Part shown: piece after piece, positions 3,525 to 40,184 of the stretch | Numbering within the stretch: the stretch's first letter is position 1 | Layout of the letters: each line of letters opens with the position of its first letter | IMG/VR virus record: IMGVR_UViG_3300042898_002521 | Span: 1-64,000 of that record | Origin: a virus | Strand: one strand, 5' to 3' | Length of the DNA: 64,000 bases | Translations under genes and position numbers: made by a program | The notes under the pieces: model-generated | The model's input: only the letters and a program-made list of their open reading frames with translations | What the model was told of the DNA's origin: nothing | The model's database searches: none

Positions 3525-4043
3525 ATGTCTGAAATGACTAAAGTTGTTGCGTTAGCCATACTTGCTAATGACAACGGCAGGAAAGAAACAGCAATACCCC
3601 GCTTTACTGACCAAGTGAAGCGTGTTGCAAGGTTTAGCGAAGTCTTGGCTTCACTTGACCATAACTACACAGGTAAGTTTGATGTTAAGTCTGCATCTGC
3701 ACTAGCCGACATTCGTATCCGAGATGCGGTACTCCGCACCCTTTACGACTTGAAGCAAGAGGGTAACCTTGAACGGCTTACTAACTACCGCTTAACGCTT
3801 GAAACTTGGGCATCTAAGACAAGCGGTACTGCCCGTCTTGCTATCTTGGCACTTTGGGCAGGTTCGTATTGGCTCGAGGGTAATGATGCGCCAATTGAAG
3901 CCGTCCTTGAAACTGAGGACTTTGGCGAATACAGCCTTTGGCAACTGCTGGACATAGCCAAACGGCACAATGTCCCGTCCTTCGTTTGGGAGAACTCACT
4001 CAAGGAAACTCCCATTAACAAGTGTTTGCAGGGTGCGGGTTAG
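3525..4043 (+). CDS. DUF4192-like protein
   Basis: IRIRDAVL...ALWAGSYWLEGNDA...YSLWQLL resembles the actinobacterial DUF4192 C-terminal region. Confidence 0.6.
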   Translation: MSEMTKVVALAILANDNGRKETAIPRFTDQVKRVARFSEVLASLDHNYTGKFDVKSASALADIRIRDAVLRTLYDLKQEGNLERLTNYRLTLETWASKTSGTARLAILALWAGSYWLEGNDAPIEAVLETEDFGEYSLWQLLDIAKRHNVPSFVWENSLKETPINKCLQGAG

Positions 4044-4060
4044 CCCCGCAAGCAATAAGC

Positions 4061-4088
4061 CAAGCCAGCCCCTACGGGGGCTGGCTTG
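4061..4088 (+). terminator. GC-rich hairpin
   Basis: CAAGCCAGCCCC-TACG-GGGGCTGGCTTG. Confidence 0.65.
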
Positions 4089-4100
4089 TCGCTTGAAATT

Positions 4101-4324: not shown

Positions 4325-5341
4325 ATGGCACACGACTTAGAGATGAACGCCAATGGCGACGTCGCATTTGCACTGCGTGGCGCGCCTGCATGGCATGGTC
4401 TGGCTCAACACATCTTCGATGAAGATGAACACGTCACGACCTCGCAAATGTTGGATAGCGCACTGCTGTCTAACTGGGACGTCCGACTAGAGGACGTAAT
4501 CCTGCCCGAGGGTTACACCACGAAATCACCTAGTTTCATGGTGGTTCGGAACGACGTGCTCAACAACAACACGCCCGACGTGTTGGCTGTCGTTGGTGAT
4601 CGTTATCACACCTACCAGAATGAGGATTTATTCGCATTCGGAGATAACCTGCTCGACGGTGGAGGTTACTGGGAGTCTGCTGGTGCAATTCGCAACGGGC
4701 GCACAGTGTTCGGAAGCCTTAAGCTTGGCAAAGACATTGTGATTGACCCTGAGGGTATTGGTGACAAAACCGACACCTACCTACTGGTTACCACAAGCCA
4801 CGACGGATCGAGTGCAATTCAGGCAATGACTACGCCAGTACGGGTAGTTTGCCAGAATACGCTTAACATGGCTCTTGGCTATGGCACTAAGCAATCTTTC
4901 AAAGTTCGCCACACAGCGACTGCGCAAGATCGTGTGTCACAGGCTCGCGAGGCTCTTGGAATCTCGTTTGCCTACCTTGACCAATTCGAGGCCGAGGCCA
5001 ATGCGCTATTCCAGTCGGCTATCACTGACAAGCAATTTGGTGAAATCATCGAATCGCTGTATCCGACACCAGATCGCGCAACTGCTGGTAAAGCAGTTCT
5101 CACCAAGTACGACGATAAAGTCGACACTATGTGGGAATTGTGGCGTGGCCCTACCCAACTGGGTATCAAAGGCACAGGTTGGGGCGCGATGAATGCACTA
5201 ACCGAACGTGTCGATTACTACCGACTAGGGCGCAAGGGTACTAACGCTGGTATTCTCGCCAGTGCTAGTGGGTTCGACGCTCAAGTGAACGCCGAGAAGT
5301 CGCGCATTCGCAAGGCAGTGCTCGAGACTGCTGGTCTGTAA
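4325..5341 (+). CDS. DUF932/DUF945 phage-plasmid protein (TIGR03299-like)
   Basis: MAHDLE...PAWHGL; YLLVTTSHDGS; TPVRVVCQNTL; VRHT motifs. Confidence 0.85.
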   Translation: MAHDLEMNANGDVAFALRGAPAWHGLAQHIFDEDEHVTTSQMLDSALLSNWDVRLEDVILPEGYTTKSPSFMVVRNDVLNNNTPDVLAVVGDRYHTYQNEDLFAFGDNLLDGGGYWESAGAIRNGRTVFGSLKLGKDIVIDPEGIGDKTDTYLLVTTSHDGSSAIQAMTTPVRVVCQNTLNMALGYGTKQSFKVRHTATAQDRVSQAREALGISFAYLDQFEAEANALFQSAITDKQFGEIIESLYPTPDRATAGKAVLTKYDDKVDTMWELWRGPTQLGIKGTGWGAMNALTERVDYYRLGRKGTNAGILASASGFDAQVNAEKSRIRKAVLETAGL

Positions 5342-7465: not shown

Positions 7466-7589
7466 TTGGTTAGGGGTAACAGAGTAATCTGCAATAAAGA
7501 ACACCCAGTCCTGTCATCGAGCAGGTACGGCTAGTACCGAGCAGACTCACAGTCACGGAAGTGGCACGGCTCTCTCTACCCCTAACCAA
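7466..7589 (+). ncRNA. candidate structured RNA, solo member of the AC/CUC stem family
   Basis: 13-bp closing stem TTGGTTAGGGGTA/TACCCCTAACCAA, AC/CTC internal loop, inner helices incl. GTCAC-GGAA-GTGGC. Confidence 0.65.
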
Positions 7590-7794: not shown

Positions 7795-7834
7795 CCCCGA
7801 GGTTGCCGAACTTGGTAGCCTCGGGGCTTTTTTT
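7795..7834 (+). terminator. intrinsic terminator
   Basis: CCCCGAGG...CCTCGGGG + T-run. Confidence 0.8.
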
Positions 7835-8439: not shown

Positions 8440-8534
8440 CTAAATCTTTTGATAATAATTATGTAATTTCACCCTTTACTGGTACGGTCTGTGTATTGGA
8501 TAAATAAAAGCTTTATGAAAGGAAGCAATCCACT

Positions 8535-9971
8535 ATGACAATCGCACTCTACGTTGAGTCCCTGTCCGAGACCATTGGTGACAATGGCGAGGCAGGTCTT
8601 GACCAAACTATTATCGTGCCAAACTACACCGTTGGCGCAGTCCAGTTATTCCACCGCACCAGTACGGGTAAGCGTGGTCGTTCCGAGGCTTGGACACTAA
8701 CGCCTCTATCTGATCTACCTAATACCCGTGTCATTAAGAACCCTGTTGCTATCCGTCTCACCGACAATGACCACTTTGCTATTCAAGGTGGCAAGGTAAC
8801 TACTTTGGGATACAAGACCACCACCGCCTCCGATCAACTTACCAAGCTTGGTGGCGATTACACTCTTAACCACTTTGATCTAGTATCAGACTTGGTATCA
8901 CGTTTCGAGAACGCCGATAATAGCCTTGCTATCTACTTGACCGACTCTCGTTACAAGGACACCTCAATCGAGTTTCCTCCTCTAGTGCCTAACCGTGCCT
9001 TTGGTAATAGTCCTGTTAGCACTTCGATCAACCCGACAATTTCCAACGTGGCAGTCCCTAACCAGCCTGTTACACCTCGCCACACCACCACACCAAGCTT
9101 GGTAATGGAATTGGCTAGTGTGCCTGACATTAAATGGGCAAAGCAATACATCAACCGCAAGGTCGTAGGTGACGTTAGTGATTTTGATATCTTTGACGTT
9201 GCTATGCGTAATGACGAGAACGTGCTTATTACTGGTCACGCTGGTTCTGGTAAGACTTCCTCGGTTATGGCTTACGCCTCGGCTCGCGGATACCGTTACT
9301 ACAACTTCTCTTGCTCGGCTGGCACGGATACCAAGAAACTATTTGGTGGATACAACCCAAGCCCAGACGGTCACTTCCATTGGCAAGACGGGGCAATAAC
9401 AGACTTGGTACGCAACGGAGGAGTCCTGCTTATCGGTGAGATTACCTTTATGCCTGAACGTACCGCCTCGGAATTGTATTCTCTATTAGATTACCGCCGT
9501 GAAATCCAACTAACGGATAAAGACGGGGAGGTTGTCAAGGCTCACCCTGATCTGCTCATTATTGCTGACGGTAATCTTGGCTATCGTGGTACGCGCGAAC
9601 TATCCCAAGCTTTCAACGATAGGTTCACACACCACCTCGACTTCCCGTATGACCCAGACATTGAGGGTAAGCTAATCAAGAGTAAGGCAATCTTGGAAAT
9701 GGCTAATTCATTACGAGACCGTTTCGAGGAGGAGGAAATCCAGACCCCGATCTCGACTCGCTCACTTGTCGCTCTAATGGGTAACATTAACAGTCTTGGT
9801 TTGGACTACGGTATCTACGCCTACCTCAACTTATTCCCAATGCGCGAGCAAGCTAGTGTCAAGTTAGTTATTGACACCTACCGCTACAACATTGAGGAGG
9901 AACTAGGTTTGGTTCACTCTGCACCTGCCGAGCCTGTTATGGAGGTGCTTAATAATGGTAATGCCAACTAA
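8535..9971 (+). CDS. MoxR/CbbQ-NirQ-NorQ-type AAA+ ATPase with N-terminal extension
   Basis: Walker A GHAGSGKT, WQDG motif, Walker B LLIGE (variant), AFNDRF arginine finger, ISTR. Confidence 0.85.
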   Translation: MTIALYVESLSETIGDNGEAGLDQTIIVPNYTVGAVQLFHRTSTGKRGRSEAWTLTPLSDLPNTRVIKNPVAIRLTDNDHFAIQGGKVTTLGYKTTTASDQLTKLGGDYTLNHFDLVSDLVSRFENADNSLAIYLTDSRYKDTSIEFPPLVPNRAFGNSPVSTSINPTISNVAVPNQPVTPRHTTTPSLVMELASVPDIKWAKQYINRKVVGDVSDFDIFDVAMRNDENVLITGHAGSGKTSSVMAYASARGYRYYNFSCSAGTDTKKLFGGYNPSPDGHFHWQDGAITDLVRNGGVLLIGEITFMPERTASELYSLLDYRREIQLTDKDGEVVKAHPDLLIIADGNLGYRGTRELSQAFNDRFTHHLDFPYDPDIEGKLIKSKAILEMANSLRDRFEEEEIQTPISTRSLVALMGNINSLGLDYGIYAYLNLFPMREQASVKLVIDTYRYNIEEELGLVHSAPAEPVMEVLNNGNAN

Positions 9972-11820
9972 GAAACCTGCTAAGTCTGCCGATACTGGCA
10001 ACCTGTACCAAGACTGGTATGACTACAACAGCACCAACTCTAGCGAGGGTCTATCCCAGATCGAGCGTGAGGAACTCAAGGATTACCTTGTGGCTAAACA
10101 GGCTAAGAAGCTTGCTAGGTTTCAGGCTATCGCTGGTGTGTACCAGACTGCGGATAGTGTGCTTACCAAAGCTAGTATTACCGTTACTGCTGGTGACTTT
10201 AGTAACCTAGAGTCAATGGGTGAAGCACCTGCGTTCAATGACGGCAAGACTATCTATCTCAACACAAACGTCTTAGCCGAGATTGACGATAACAGTCTCA
10301 TTAGCCTTAACGGTATCAACTACCACGAAGTTGCTCATATCCTGTGGTCACCGCGAGGCAACTCCGAGTTTGGGCGCAAGGTTACTAAAGGTGGATACCA
10401 AACCTCTTTCAATATCCTTGAGGACTTGCGTATCGAAACTCTTATGACCGCGCGTTTCCCAAGCACTACCCTGTCACTTACCCAGTCTGTTTTGACCTAC
10501 ATTATGGATAACCCAGACCCAAGTGACTCGTTTCCTCTAATCCGAGGTCGGCGTTACTTGCCTATCGAGGTGCGCCAACTATCTGCTGATCTCTATGTAG
10601 GTCGGCACGGCTCAACTCACGCTAACAATGTCGCTCGTATCGTAGATGAATACCGACTACTTACTTACCCAAGTGATTATGAACGTGGTTACGATCTCAT
10701 TGTTGAGTTTCATAATCTGCTCAAGCTTGCTGACCCAAAGAATAAGACCGAGGGACAATGTGGCTCACGCCCAATGCTCAAGTCTGGCAGACCTGAAAGT
10801 AACGATAAGCAAAGCAATATTGCTAATCGCGCTAAGGGTATGGACAAGAAAGCCGAGGATATCCCACCCAACGACAAGTCAGGTGCAGGTGCAGGTGACG
10901 AGGGTGAGTCCCAAGAATATGACCCACTTCAAGAACGTACCGAAATGGATACCGAGTTTGCTAACGTAGTGCGCGAGGCTATCAAAACCATTATGAAGTC
11001 CAAGCAAGTCAAGACCGAGGCTCGACAACTACGTTCTGCTATCCGTGAGTCTGACCGTGCAGGTCGTACAGACCTCAAGGCAACCTCCGATCTACTCCCA
11101 GTAGATAACGTGTACCGCGTGGCAAGCAAAGCTTTCGCACAGGAACTTAGCAAACTGCGTATTGACAGCGACCCACATTGGGATATTGAGAAACCTGTTG
11201 GTCGGCTCAATATCAACCGTGTTATGAATATGGATATTAACGATATCAACACGGTCTTTGACGAGTGGCGTGAGGGGCGTGACGAGTTTAATATCGAAGC
11301 CGTTATTATGTGCGACACATCAGGCTCTATGGGCAACGTAATCAAGGAGGTCTCTCAATCTATGTGGGCGATCAAACGTGCGCTGGAGGAAATTGACGGC
11401 AAGGTTACGGTCATTGGCTTTAGTGACAAGACCAAGCTTGTTTATGGAAGCAACGAACGTGCCACTAGCCAATACCGATTTTGGTATGACGGTGGAGGTA
11501 CTGACCCACTTGACGCTTTACTTGACGCGGAAGCAATACTTGAGTCCTCTCGGCGCAAGACTAAGTTGTTATTCGTAATCACAGACGGGGAGTGGTCACG
11601 GTCTGACGATTGTGACTCTACTATTAAGCGTATTAACAATATTGACGGCACTATTAGTCAGATTGTATTCATTAGTAGTAGTGAATACATTATGGAACAG
11701 ACCGTGACGGACAGGGAAGCCACAATGAAGCGTTACCGTCATCACGCTCACGCCATTGAGTTAGTCTCTAAGCCTAATGAACTTGTTAGTGTTGCCCGTA
11801 ACATCTTACGGAGTCTCTAA
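9955..11820 (+). CDS. vWA-domain protein with N-terminal HExxH metallopeptidase-like domain
   Basis: HEVAH, FNILED; MIDAS DTSGSM, GGGT, ITDG. Confidence 0.85.
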   Translation: MVMPTKKPAKSADTGNLYQDWYDYNSTNSSEGLSQIEREELKDYLVAKQAKKLARFQAIAGVYQTADSVLTKASITVTAGDFSNLESMGEAPAFNDGKTIYLNTNVLAEIDDNSLISLNGINYHEVAHILWSPRGNSEFGRKVTKGGYQTSFNILEDLRIETLMTARFPSTTLSLTQSVLTYIMDNPDPSDSFPLIRGRRYLPIEVRQLSADLYVGRHGSTHANNVARIVDEYRLLTYPSDYERGYDLIVEFHNLLKLADPKNKTEGQCGSRPMLKSGRPESNDKQSNIANRAKGMDKKAEDIPPNDKSGAGAGDEGESQEYDPLQERTEMDTEFANVVREAIKTIMKSKQVKTEARQLRSAIRESDRAGRTDLKATSDLLPVDNVYRVASKAFAQELSKLRIDSDPHWDIEKPVGRLNINRVMNMDINDINTVFDEWREGRDEFNIEAVIMCDTSGSMGNVIKEVSQSMWAIKRALEEIDGKVTVIGFSDKTKLVYGSNERATSQYRFWYDGGGTDPLDALLDAEAILESSRRKTKLLFVITDGEWSRSDDCDSTIKRINNIDGTISQIVFISSSEYIMEQTVTDREATMKRYRHHAHAIELVSKPNELVSVARNILRSL

Positions 11821-12560
11821 TGACTTGTGGCATAGGCGTTAAACCGAGTCGTGAAATCTCGGCAAGGACTTCCATAATAAGCACTTACTTCCTTTCAGCT
11901 TTAGAAGTACCTGCGCTTATGCCACTTACTAAACTTAGTACGCCCAACTCCCATTTACGAACGGAACGCCTGTCTGAACGCGCTATGCGTAAGAGTGACT
12001 GTGGTTCACTATTAGAACTTGGGACTCTGGGCGTACTAACAAGCTTAGTAGGCGCAACGTACAACCTGCGTTTGCATATTGCAACAATGACCGTGCCTCT
12101 GCGCCTACTAACTAACTTGGTATCAACAACGGTATCTATCCGAACCACAGAGAACACGCTACGACAGGTTGTCAGGGTTGGTAGTGCTAGATCGCTCTCT
12201 GTTGATACCAAACCCTTTAACCACGCACGTTCAGGAGTATCTTGCCTGTGTCTGGTAAGTAAAGGTCGTGGTAACTACGTTCCGCTTTGCTTATCTATGA
12301 GGTGTTTCCCTCAAATTGGAAACCGTGTTAGACGAAGCGAGCATAATAGGAGTCTCAACTTACGACCTTTACCTCGCGTGGTTAATCCCATTACTACTGG
12401 TGAGAGTGACGATACAACTACTGGTCTGTTCCAAGATGTCCTAAAGCTTACCCAACTTAGGTTGTGGTCTGCTTGTGACCGAGAGAACCACCGAACGGTT
12501 TATCCTCCGCTCTCACCAGTAATAATGCTTATCCCAACACAAACTTTTGCAGGTGCATAA
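11820..12560 (+). CDS. open frame of atypical composition overlying an RNA structure array
   Basis: 246 codons, TAATG overlaps at both ends; rich in T/L/S/R/V, no recognisable domain. Confidence 0.45.
   Translation: MTCGIGVKPSREISARTSIISTYFLSALEVPALMPLTKLSTPNSHLRTERLSERAMRKSDCGSLLELGTLGVLTSLVGATYNLRLHIATMTVPLRLLTNLVSTTVSIRTTENTLRQVVRVGSARSLSVDTKPFNHARSGVSCLCLVSKGRGNYVPLCLSMRCFPQIGNRVRRSEHNRSLNLRPLPRVVNPITTGESDDTTTGLFQDVLKLTQLRLWSACDRENHRTVYPPLSPVIMLIPTQTFAGA
11827..12526 (+). ncRNA. array of six stem-closed structured RNA domains
   Basis: 11827-11925, 11935-12039, 12045-12111, 12117-12211, 12217-12385, 12390-12526; 10-19 bp closing stems, 4-9 nt spacers; AC/CTC junction in five. Confidence 0.75.
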
Positions 12561-12769
12561 TGGCTCTAATACATTCAAGCGGATTAGTTATTACAGAACG
12601 GTCAGAACATCTACCAGAATATGACGGTGACTCTAAGTATGTCGTATGGAACTTATCCGAGGCAGAGCCGAAGGCAAGCTTCACCGCTAGTTATCTACCA
12701 ACTTTGATTAGATATCTTGATATTAACTACACTATTGCTAATAAATACAAACCCGAGAGAGGTATCTGA
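12560..12769 (+). CDS. hypothetical protein
   Basis: ORF track; coupled. Confidence 0.65.
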   Translation: MALIHSSGLVITERSEHLPEYDGDSKYVVWNLSEAEPKASFTASYLPTLIRYLDINYTIANKYKPERGI

Positions 12770-12981
12770 TGACCGAACCAGAACAACCAAAACCACCCCG
12801 ACCCGACTACGAAGTTGCGATCTTAGGTACGCAAGACGGGAATAACATCACATACGAGATGAAAGTCTTTGCTGATGACCCTGCTCACGCGAGCGAGCAA
12901 GGGTTCGAGTGGGCGCAACACCATACAGACGATTGGGCAACCGCAACATACCGTATCAACAAGATCAAGTATTACAACTAA
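12769..12981 (+). CDS. hypothetical protein
   Basis: ORF track; GAGAGG RBS. Confidence 0.7.
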   Translation: MTEPEQPKPPRPDYEVAILGTQDGNNITYEMKVFADDPAHASEQGFEWAQHHTDDWATATYRINKIKYYN

Positions 12982-13020
12982 TAAGTTTATTAGTATTAAC
13001 TACTACAAGAAAGAATAGAA

Positions 13021-13179
13021 ATGGAATATCAAATAACACAAGTAATTACTTACTGGGTACACGCCGAGACAGCTCAGGAAGCTCTCGACAAGTGGAACGC
13101 TAACCCCCGAACAGGCGTGACACAATGGCAAGACGGGGATATTGAACTATCTGATGAACACGTTGAACTAAATGGATAA
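13021..13179 (+). CDS. hypothetical protein, 52 aa
   Basis: manual ORF MEYQITQVITYWVHAETAQEAL. Confidence 0.55.
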   Translation: MEYQITQVITYWVHAETAQEALDKWNANPRTGVTQWQDGDIELSDEHVELNG

Positions 13180-13342
13180 GGAAACTAACAAGGAAATGAA
13201 GCCAATACTTCACCCAATAACTATTAAAGACACCCTTTACTACCTAACTTACCGCGAACTATCTGCTCTCTATGCTCAACTTCAATGTGCCGTAGAGGAA
13301 GCTGATGTGCTTGAGTACGTCACAAGAAAGGAACTAAGCTAG
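13172..13342 (+). CDS. hypothetical protein, 56 aa
   Basis: manual ORF filling the operon gap. Confidence 0.5.
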   Translation: MDKETNKEMKPILHPITIKDTLYYLTYRELSALYAQLQCAVEEADVLEYVTRKELS

Positions 13343-13344
13343 TT

Positions 13345-13584
13345 ATGCTGTACCGAGTTGCGCTAGGAATAGTGCTTAAAGACTTACGGATTAAACAGGG
13401 TTGGACTTTGCGAGAGTTATCTACCAAAGCTCTTATGTCTCTAGGCTACCTATCCGAGATAGAAAGAGGAGTCAAAGAGGTGTCCAGCGACCTTATGTTT
13501 GGACTATGTGAAGCGTTAGACTCTAACGTGCCTGACGTATTAGATCAAGTATCAACCCTAATGAGAGAGAGAGTAACAGTATGA
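13345..13584 (+). CDS. XRE HTH regulator, ClgR-like
   Basis: TLRELS..ALMSLGYLSEIERGVKEVSS..LCEAL closely matches actinobacterial ClgR. Confidence 0.8.
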   Translation: MLYRVALGIVLKDLRIKQGWTLRELSTKALMSLGYLSEIERGVKEVSSDLMFGLCEALDSNVPDVLDQVSTLMRERVTV

Positions 13585-39964: not shown

Positions 39965-40029
39965 TGCCAGTTCTCTCCTAAGGGCAATACATAAAGTTTA
40001 CCCGAAGAAAGAATAATAATCTTGGCTTG

Positions 40030-40101
40030 CTCCCCGCCGTGGACTTGAACCACGAACATTTCGATTAACAGTCGAACGCTCTGCCATTGAGCTAGCAGGG
40101 A
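40030..40101 (-). tRNA. tRNA-Asn (GTT)
   Basis: TCCCTGC acceptor, TAGCTCAATGGCAGAGC D arm, CT-GTT-AA loop, GGTTCAAGTCC T arm. Confidence 0.92.
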
Positions 40102-40105
40102 TTAG

Positions 40106-40184
40106 TGGAGCAGTCGAGAGTCGAACTCGATTCCTAACATTTCCGACATGCGGAGTTAATGCCAGTCGATACCAAATCTGCCCC
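40106..40184 (-). ncRNA. tmRNA-like RNA reduced to the tRNA-like domain (no tag ORF)
   Basis: GGGGCAG/CUGCUCC-A acceptor with G3:U; stemless D loop ..GGUAUCGAC; helix 2a; GAA linker; T arm UCGAG-UUCGACU-CUCGA. Confidence 0.75.

Follow-up and report, generated by a model that had tools for sequence, protein, structure and literature searches.

A row of handle-sharing structured RNA modules enclosed in a start-coupled open frame of an uncultured lake-water phage

Background

In the early polycistronic transcript of phage T7, the RNase III hairpins have a basal stem that leads through an asymmetric internal loop into an upper helix. The tRNA region of phage T4, with its species 1 and 2 RNAs, forms a polycistronic cluster of stable RNAs. 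The Y RNAs of Ro60 modules carry a stem motif, described as GNCGAAN0-1G with GGUCCGA-like forms (PMC4201824) or as CGAA (PMC12135203). Here we describe a row of six structured RNA modules at positions 11827-12526 (+ strand) of a 64,000-nucleotide (nt) stretch of viral DNA, called the window below (IMG/VR record IMGVR_UViG_3300042898_002521, positions 1 to 64,000). The window is part of an 87.5-kb record, with a G+C content of 43.7%, of an uncultured phage from lake water. Five of the six modules share a small internal-loop handle, and all of them lie within one open reading frame (ORF) that is fused to the genes on either side. No description of such an array was found in Rfam or in the searchable literature.

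Architecture of the array and its handle

Approximately 700 nt are tiled by six domains closed by pairing of their ends, with spacers of 9, 5, 5, 5 and 4 nt. The units (U), together with a seventh one found alone in the same genome, are as follows.

11827-11925, + strand: unit 1, 99 nt; without the AC/CUC junction; conserved pyrimidine tract in the terminal loop
11884-11897, + strand: terminal loop of unit 1, CUUACUUCCUUUCA; similar to the anti-Shine-Dalgarno tail of 16S rRNA; conserved in three lineages
11935-12039, + strand: unit 2, 105 nt; 12-bp closing stem, AC/CUC loop, 5-bp inner helix
12045-12111, + strand: unit 3, 67 nt; 12-bp closing stem, AC/CUC loop, inner helix of 4-5 bp
12117-12211, + strand: unit 4, 95 nt; 12-bp closing stem, AC/CUC loop; orthologue in the related locus L005 at 4006-4098
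12217-12385, + strand: unit 5, 169 nt; 10-bp closing stem; forms a four-way junction whose loops are strongly conserved
12390-12526, + strand: unit 6, 137 nt; AC/CUC loop, inner helix of 4-5 bp
7466-7589, + strand: solo seventh unit (U7), 124 nt; 13-bp stem, AC/CUC loop, AGAGU/GCUCU inner helix

The closing stems of units 1-6 measure 12-13 bp (with one G-U pair), 12, 12, 12, 10 and 14-19 bp (with one U-G and one C-A), respectively. Within units 2-6, AC lies directly 3′ of the 5′ arm and CTC directly 5′ of the 3′ arm, and an inner helix of 2-5 bp resumes inside the loop. The handle, present in all unit types except unit 1, is composed of a closing stem of 10-19 bp, a 2x3 internal loop 5′-AC/CUC-3′ and this inner helix. 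The only sequence common to the units is AC/CTC; the arms are all different. The 5′ strand reads stem-AC-G/U/A in every one of the 22 units examined (22/22), and in unit 5 the CUC probably pairs with an internal GAG. Each unit is an RNA closed by a 5′/3′ stem with an internal loop and bears a variable upper part, as Y-RNA-like molecules do.

A first-pass annotation, made from the sequence alone, had proposed these six end-paired domains with their spacers and the AC/CUC junction of domains 2-6. All of the stems were found where it had placed them, pairing does resume inside the loops, and every unit folds better than its dinucleotide shuffles (z of -4.7, -4.0, -3.9, -1.7, -3.8 and -5.9 for units 1-6). 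Its statement that no described family could be recognised agrees with our searches of Rfam and with tRNA models (see below), and it was silent on the open frame (11820-12560) that encloses the whole array.

Units that combine the AC...CTC signature with an arm of 10 bp or more occur six times in the whole 87.5-kb genome, all on the + strand (five in the array plus the solo unit). The mean number of such units in 100 shuffled genomes was 0.07, with a maximum of 1. A relaxed genome scan, in which mismatch was tolerated, yielded no additional AC...CTC units. The solo unit is intergenic: it lies 5 nt past a stop codon and 7 nt ahead of an AAGGAGG Shine-Dalgarno (SD) sequence, and contains stops in all three frames. 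That the structured units are real is, in our judgement, close to certain.

A candidate pairing between two units (11999-12007 with 12142-12150) is not kept in the related locus L001 and was treated as chance.

Conservation of RNA structure across lineages

Homologous loci were collected from metagenomes and IMG/VR with the upstream vWA gene as an anchor, independently of the array. A tiled array is located directly 3′ of the vWA stop codon in loci L001, L002, L004, L005 and L006. The vWA proteins of these loci share 91-95% (L001, L002 and L004), 65% (L005 = L025) and 43% (L006 = L019) identity with that of the window. Closing-stem sequences differ entirely between lineages, and every unit other than unit 1 retains the order stem-AC...CTC-stem. 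The L005 array contains counterparts of units 1, 2, 5 and 4, with unit 3 absent. The L006 array includes a counterpart of unit 1, and its last unit is the orthologue of the solo unit at 7466-7589 of the window. Units of different loci are orthologues, each conserved in its own right, and not copies of one another.

Covariation was assessed in a set of 5-6 loci, with 4-6 sequences per unit. In U5, both sides had changed in 16 of the 53 pairs, and 96.7% of the cells remained paired; sliding the partners gave 0-3 double-changed pairs, and the observed value was reached in none of 500 shuffles. Both sides had also changed in 15/30 pairs of U1 (six sequences from three lineages), 9/31 pairs of U4 and 10/35 pairs of U7. 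Whole helices are exchanged between the window and L001 (AAGC/GCTT for GGAT/GTCC). The inner helix of unit 2, TCCCA/TGGGA in the window, reads GCTCA/TGAGC in L001 and GCTTA/TAAGC in L004, and the closing stem of unit 3 changes from GGCGCA/TGCGCC to GGTGCA/TGCACC in L004. Four public DNA runs added only L001-like variants, among them A12063G/C12092T, by which an A-C becomes a G-U. Among public runs, none of RNA was listed as containing the stretch.

Between close relatives, differences at the three codon positions amount to 18:17:28, 22:23:32 and 35:37:42 in the array, whereas the corresponding figures for the adjacent vWA gene are 22:15:64, 19:12:73 and 38:24:138. The compensatory pair changes, together with a third-codon bias that is nearly absent from the array, unlike the vWA gene, indicate selection on RNA structure and not on protein. 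The first-pass annotation had considered that homologous loci might conserve amino acids instead of base pairs; the opposite was found, the pairs being kept by compensatory changes. As regards strand, the consensus pairs include 64 G-U against 9 A-C cells, the consensus fold of U5 reaches -55.4 kcal/mol on the + strand versus -42.7 on the - strand, and all flanking genes are on the + strand.

The vWA homologues of L007, L026 and Gordonia phage DalanDe are not accompanied by an array, and the link to the neighbouring proteins is therefore not obligatory. In DalanDe, the nearest cultured phage with a vWA gene (28% identity), ordinary small genes and no tiled AC/CTC units are located downstream.

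Two single hairpins were recorded at the homologous loci. A 16-bp hairpin, followed by AT-rich sequence, lies past the vWA gene in L007 (4890-4940) and L026 (4926-4976) and may represent a terminator or what is left of unit 1. In L005, a plain 38-nt hairpin (3968-4005; 11-bp stem, no AC/CTC) is present between two handle-bearing units.

The terminal loop of unit 1

The unit 1 loop contains UCCUU and is invariant across lineages. Anti-SD sequences of the UCCUU type are cut by some actinobacterial MazF toxins. The SD region of the MoxR gene of the window (8516-8529, + strand; TGAAAGGAAGCAAT) is complementary to this loop with two mismatches, and the loop could act in autoregulation through the MoxR SD. 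The number of such complementary sites (three with at most two mismatches, versus 0.84 expected) is not above chance, as 7 of 100 shuffles contained as many.

The stop-free frame

The whole array is spanned by a single open frame.

11820-12560, + strand: array frame, 246 codons without a stop; its ATG shares a base with the vWA stop codon (TAATG), with GGAG 7 nt upstream

At the other end, the TAA of the frame and the ATG of the following gene (12560-12769) have one base in common. Each of the other two frames across the array contains about 20 stops. Within the array, uninterrupted runs extend to at most 232/233 codons (window), 146 codons (L005) and 163 codons (L006), lengths that none of 2000 shuffles attained; the 155-codon run of L004 was reached in 2/2000. 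The start of the frame is fused to the vWA stop codon in all lineages (TAATG, or TAAATG in L006), with GGAG or GAGGA upstream, and its end forms TAATG with the start of the following gene in the window, L001 and L004.

The encoded peptide shows a different picture from the frame itself. A Pfam search with the 246-codon frame gave no match, and the frames of L005 and L006 show protein similarity to that of the window only at the translated unit 1 loop; the invariant "YFLS" of the ORF translations results from the conservation of this loop. In 26 database ORFs, whole blocks of similar nucleotides are read in another frame, after which the original frame resumes. At least 35 database ORF clusters (26+9) have been called on the array. 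In L004, unit 5 is longer by 7 nt, so that the frame ends at 4350, and an overlapping frame, whose ATG lies 11 nt ahead of that stop, continues as far as the next gene. The same split variant, a 158-codon ORF followed by an overlapping relay ORF of 93 codons, recurs elsewhere: the short first ORF is found in twelve clusters, and the relay, with a conserved start, in eight protein clusters as well as in L004, although these full-length and relay ORFs of the database were ascertained by being called as ORFs, and the anchor-based loci are unbiased but few. At L004 4586-4648 there is no counterpart of the 69-codon gene of the window, and the relay frame ends on the ATG of the homologue of the gene at 12769-12981.

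It is very likely that the open frame is under selection. Because of the shuffling results, the fused starts and the relay ORF on the one hand and the non-conserved peptide on the other, stop-freeness and coupling seem to be what is selected, and not the peptide product.

Searches for known families and further copies

A cmscan search of Rfam over positions 11000-13500 gave nothing relevant at E ≤ 10, and the arrays of L005 and L006 gave nothing at E ≤ 1. No family of Rfam 15, which includes YrlA, GOLLD, ROOL, tRNA and ribozymes, matches the array. At gathering scores, the only Rfam matches in the window were a tRNA-Asn and a tmRNA-like match near 40.1 kb. ARAGORN identified a single tRNA in the window, at 40029-40101, and none in the array. 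Comparison of the array with 50,697 phage records by blastn and tblastn revealed no match. A scan for the U5 core produced no matches in 185,579 prokaryote genomes and only the three known relatives in IMG/VR. A pattern based on U7 gave two chance matches inside ORFs, both without the handle.

A Ro60 ribonucleoprotein (RNP) was considered and rejected: a search of the 87.5-kb genome with PF05731 (TROVE) gave nothing at E ≤ 1, whereas control genomes do match, and the structural matches, which cover residues ~380-621 of the vWA protein, include no Ro60 chain.

Genomic context

The genes adjacent to the array are listed below.

8535-9971, + strand: MoxR/CobS-like AAA_5 ATPase gene, the first gene of the operon containing the array
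9955-11820, + strand: vWA gene, 621 aa; C-terminal vWA domain of the NorD/Rea1-MIDAS type, N-terminal HExxH; CobT-like annotation
12560-12769, + strand: 69-codon gene, whose ATG overlaps the stop codon of the array frame

The operon begins downstream of a strong terminator (7795-7826), and neither flank of the array shows a site resembling a promoter or a terminator.

The 621-aa vWA protein gave only a vWA match and a weak DUF2201_N match in Pfam, and a profile search of the PDB yielded vWA chains only. Its AlphaFold model has a pLDDT of 78; Foldseek and VIA-align matches cover residues ~380-621 only, the best being NorD and the Rea1/MDN1 MIDAS. An invariant NYHExxH motif is present at residues 122-128, in the N-terminal helical domain. 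The protein resembles a fusion between a peptidase of the zincin type and a MIDAS-type vWA domain, paired with the MoxR ATPase.

Two further features were noted. In L006, a long near-perfect palindrome (779-917) upstream of the MoxR gene has sub-threshold matches to unrelated hairpin models (Phe_leader and several miRNAs) and is probably a plain inverted repeat. In the window, positions 40103-40184 (- strand) match the Rfam tmRNA model with 61.7 bits (gathering score 47) over 82 nt only, spanning model positions 1-374. On this model match the segment is classified as a "mini-tmRNA" with a tRNA-like domain only, beside the single tRNA of the phage (tRNA-Asn, 40029-40101).

Interpretation of the array

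The reading that we favour, with a probability of roughly 0.5, is that the array is a co-transcribed precursor of distinct, handle-sharing small RNAs, threaded by coupled ribosomes. Separate small RNAs with a common factor fit best with modules that are self-contained and individually conserved, can occupy different positions and share one handle. The row of modules would be transcribed on the + strand with the MoxR-vWA operon. The modules would then most likely be released, or survive, as separate stable small RNAs, and a single common factor, a nuclease or else an RNA-binding protein, would recognise the shared handle. For the existence of discrete processed RNAs we would give slightly less than even odds. 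Base pairing or mimicry is the probable mode of action of one cargo or more, as suggested by the similarity of the unit 1 loop to the anti-SD tail of 16S rRNA. Ribosomes finishing the vWA gene would restart at the fused SD/ATG and traverse the modules, with termination at or close to the following start codon; the identity of the peptide seems to be irrelevant. Expression of the downstream genes would probably be sustained by the open frame, through coupling and without polarity, and the frame may determine which transcripts are used as mRNA and which fold into small RNAs.

The interpretation offered by the first-pass annotation, a polycistron of different RNA cargos on a common handle, is upheld as far as structures selected at the RNA level, the common handle and the differing, individually conserved cargos are concerned. 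It does not hold as a simple non-coding polycistron, because a stop-free, coupled frame threads the array.

Several observations weigh against the precursor reading. The covariation rests on about three independent lineages only. Strand preference is clear only for U5 and U4, with U1 and U7 ambiguous, and the minimum free energy of single sequences favours the + strand in only 14 of 29 units. The vWA homologues of L007 and L026, at 43% identity, occur without an array. A promoter or terminator belonging to the array itself is lacking, and passing ribosomes should unfold the modules; both features would suit an mRNA element acting in cis just as well. The analysis revealed no candidate for a protein that binds the handle. 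Those ORFs, full-length and relay, that come from a protein database were ascertained as called ORFs.

The array might instead be purely cis-acting mRNA architecture, made up of T7-like processing or stability elements, or of ribosome speed bumps setting the ratio of MoxR/vWA to downstream products, with no trans-acting RNA. Its place inside an operon without promoter or terminator of its own, the coupled frame that threads it and the position of the solo unit exactly between a stop codon and the next SD all suit such a role, as does the shape of the handle (about 12 bp, asymmetric loop, helix), which resembles a T7-type RNase III site. Plain processing or roadblock hairpins, however, need no large cargos, while those observed here are conserved multi-helix RNAs with invariant loops (U5 and U1), and six differing units, each orthologously kept across lineages, exceed the needs of spacing or stability. 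We consider a purely cis-acting role rather unlikely, although it deserves to be taken seriously. An improbable alternative is a single composite RNA or RNP of ~700 nt in the manner of GOLLD and ROOL, or a scaffold for MoxR and the MIDAS-type vWA protein with the AC/CUC loops as docking sites. The tight tiling (spacers of 1-10 nt), the recurrence of the loop 3-5 times per array and the position directly 3′ of the vWA gene in three lineages are compatible with it; moreover, the vWA domain is closest to those of the Rea1 MIDAS and NorD, which are partners of AAA+ remodellers. Yet unit content varies by lineage, one unit stands alone 4 kb away, the sole inter-unit complementarity is lost in L001, vWA homologues occur without the array (L007, L026 and DalanDe), and Rfam gives no GOLLD or ROOL match.

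That the units are DNA-level or selfish palindromes tolerated in frame, such as Rickettsia palindromic elements (RPEs) or MITEs (miniature inverted-repeat transposable elements), or hairpins of single-stranded DNA that serve in replication, is highly improbable. Like RPEs (PMC10969869), they are hairpin elements in an open frame with a meaningless-looking peptide, their content varies between lineages, and the strand asymmetry of some units is weak. Against this stand the restriction of the shared sequence to AC/CTC, which leaves no common terminal repeat for a transposase, and the failure of the relaxed scan to detect further copies; target-site duplications are not visible. The orthology of the units, the compensatory changes within multi-helix structures and the invariant loops likewise disagree with it, and the conserved G-U pairs, read on the opposite strand, would become A-C mismatches. 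We give hardly any credence to a genuine protein gene of 246 aa in which RNA pairing is incidental or tunes translation, despite an open frame with an SD and ATG and the 26+9 database ORFs called on it. Third-position bias is almost missing, blocks are read in differing frames, and many variants have the frame split. No family matches; the lineages retain the RNA architecture without sharing protein similarity, and the same handle occurs in a non-coding intergenic copy.

A bolder extension of the precursor reading, which we regard as doubtful, is that the array represents a new RNA class: handle-tagged small RNAs stored in a translated carrier frame, with ribosome traffic as the switch. The cargos would be mimics or decoys of host RNAs, and the handle would recruit one protein, possibly the MoxR/MIDAS-vWA pair. 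With such a carrier frame, the RNAs could be released once translation ceases, for example under host defences or late in infection.

If the precursor reading is correct, the array would stand for a family of non-coding RNAs conserved among phages, whose common motif for recognition by a protein or a nuclease had gone unnoticed. Its packaging, a frame kept open solely for the passage of ribosomes through consecutive RNA genes, would be of a kind not described before, and would offer a new answer to the problem of fitting RNA genes into tightly coupled phage operons without polarity. It would also be a warning for annotation, as "hypothetical proteins" may be disguised RNA arrays. The set of seven RNAs would provide a tractable route to a new RNA-binding partner, and possibly to an RNA-based counter-defence, in phages of abundant freshwater bacteria.

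Comparison with known systems

Ro60 (Rsr)/Y-RNA modules, including YrlA/YrlB, Yrn1 and Yrl1/2 of Thermus phage phiLo (PMC4201824, PMC12135203), resemble the array in having a row of differing small RNAs, a stem closing the ends, a handle with variable cargo and a neighbouring vWA gene. Unlike them, the array has no TROVE protein in its genome, no tRNA-like module and no Rfam match, its neighbour combines a HExxH N-terminal domain with a NorD/MIDAS-type vWA domain, and it is threaded by a frame. Its handle is AC/CUC and not GNCGAAN0-1G or CGAA: the Y-RNA motif is absent from it, and CGAA is found 3′ of the stem in one unit only, in L005.

With the RNase III hairpins of T7, the array shares a hairpin geometry within a polycistronic phage transcript and, in the solo unit, a location between two cistrons. 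The predicted geometry of the handle (stem of 10-17 bp, 2x3 loop, helix of 2-5 bp) is that of a T7-type site. The upper parts of the array units are, however, large, unit-specific and conserved, and six units abut one another in an open frame. Phage clusters of tRNAs and stable RNAs likewise consist of head-to-tail RNAs with spacers of a few nt and paired ends, presumably derived from one precursor. In contrast to these, the array units are not tRNAs according to ARAGORN and Rfam, have no transcription unit of their own and keep a reading frame.

Non-coding RNAs cut out of protein-coding transcripts (decRNAs; Dar and Sorek 2018, PMC6156199) and dual-function small RNAs also place a structured RNA within a translated mRNA region. 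Their ORF encodes a real, constrained protein, and the RNAs are single fragments, whereas the ORF of the array consists of RNA modules only and shows no amino-acid constraint. RPEs and in-frame MITEs (PMC10969869) are palindromes that a frame reads through, giving a meaningless peptide segment; RPEs are copies of one sequence within real genes, whereas the array units are unique and orthologous and show compensatory changes. Finally, GOLLD and ROOL, large ornate RNAs known from phages as well as prophages (PMC12286853), are, like the array, conserved multi-domain RNAs of several hundred nt in phages of lake and other communities. The array differs from both in matching neither model, in being built of independent domains whose number and order change, and in being threaded by an ORF.

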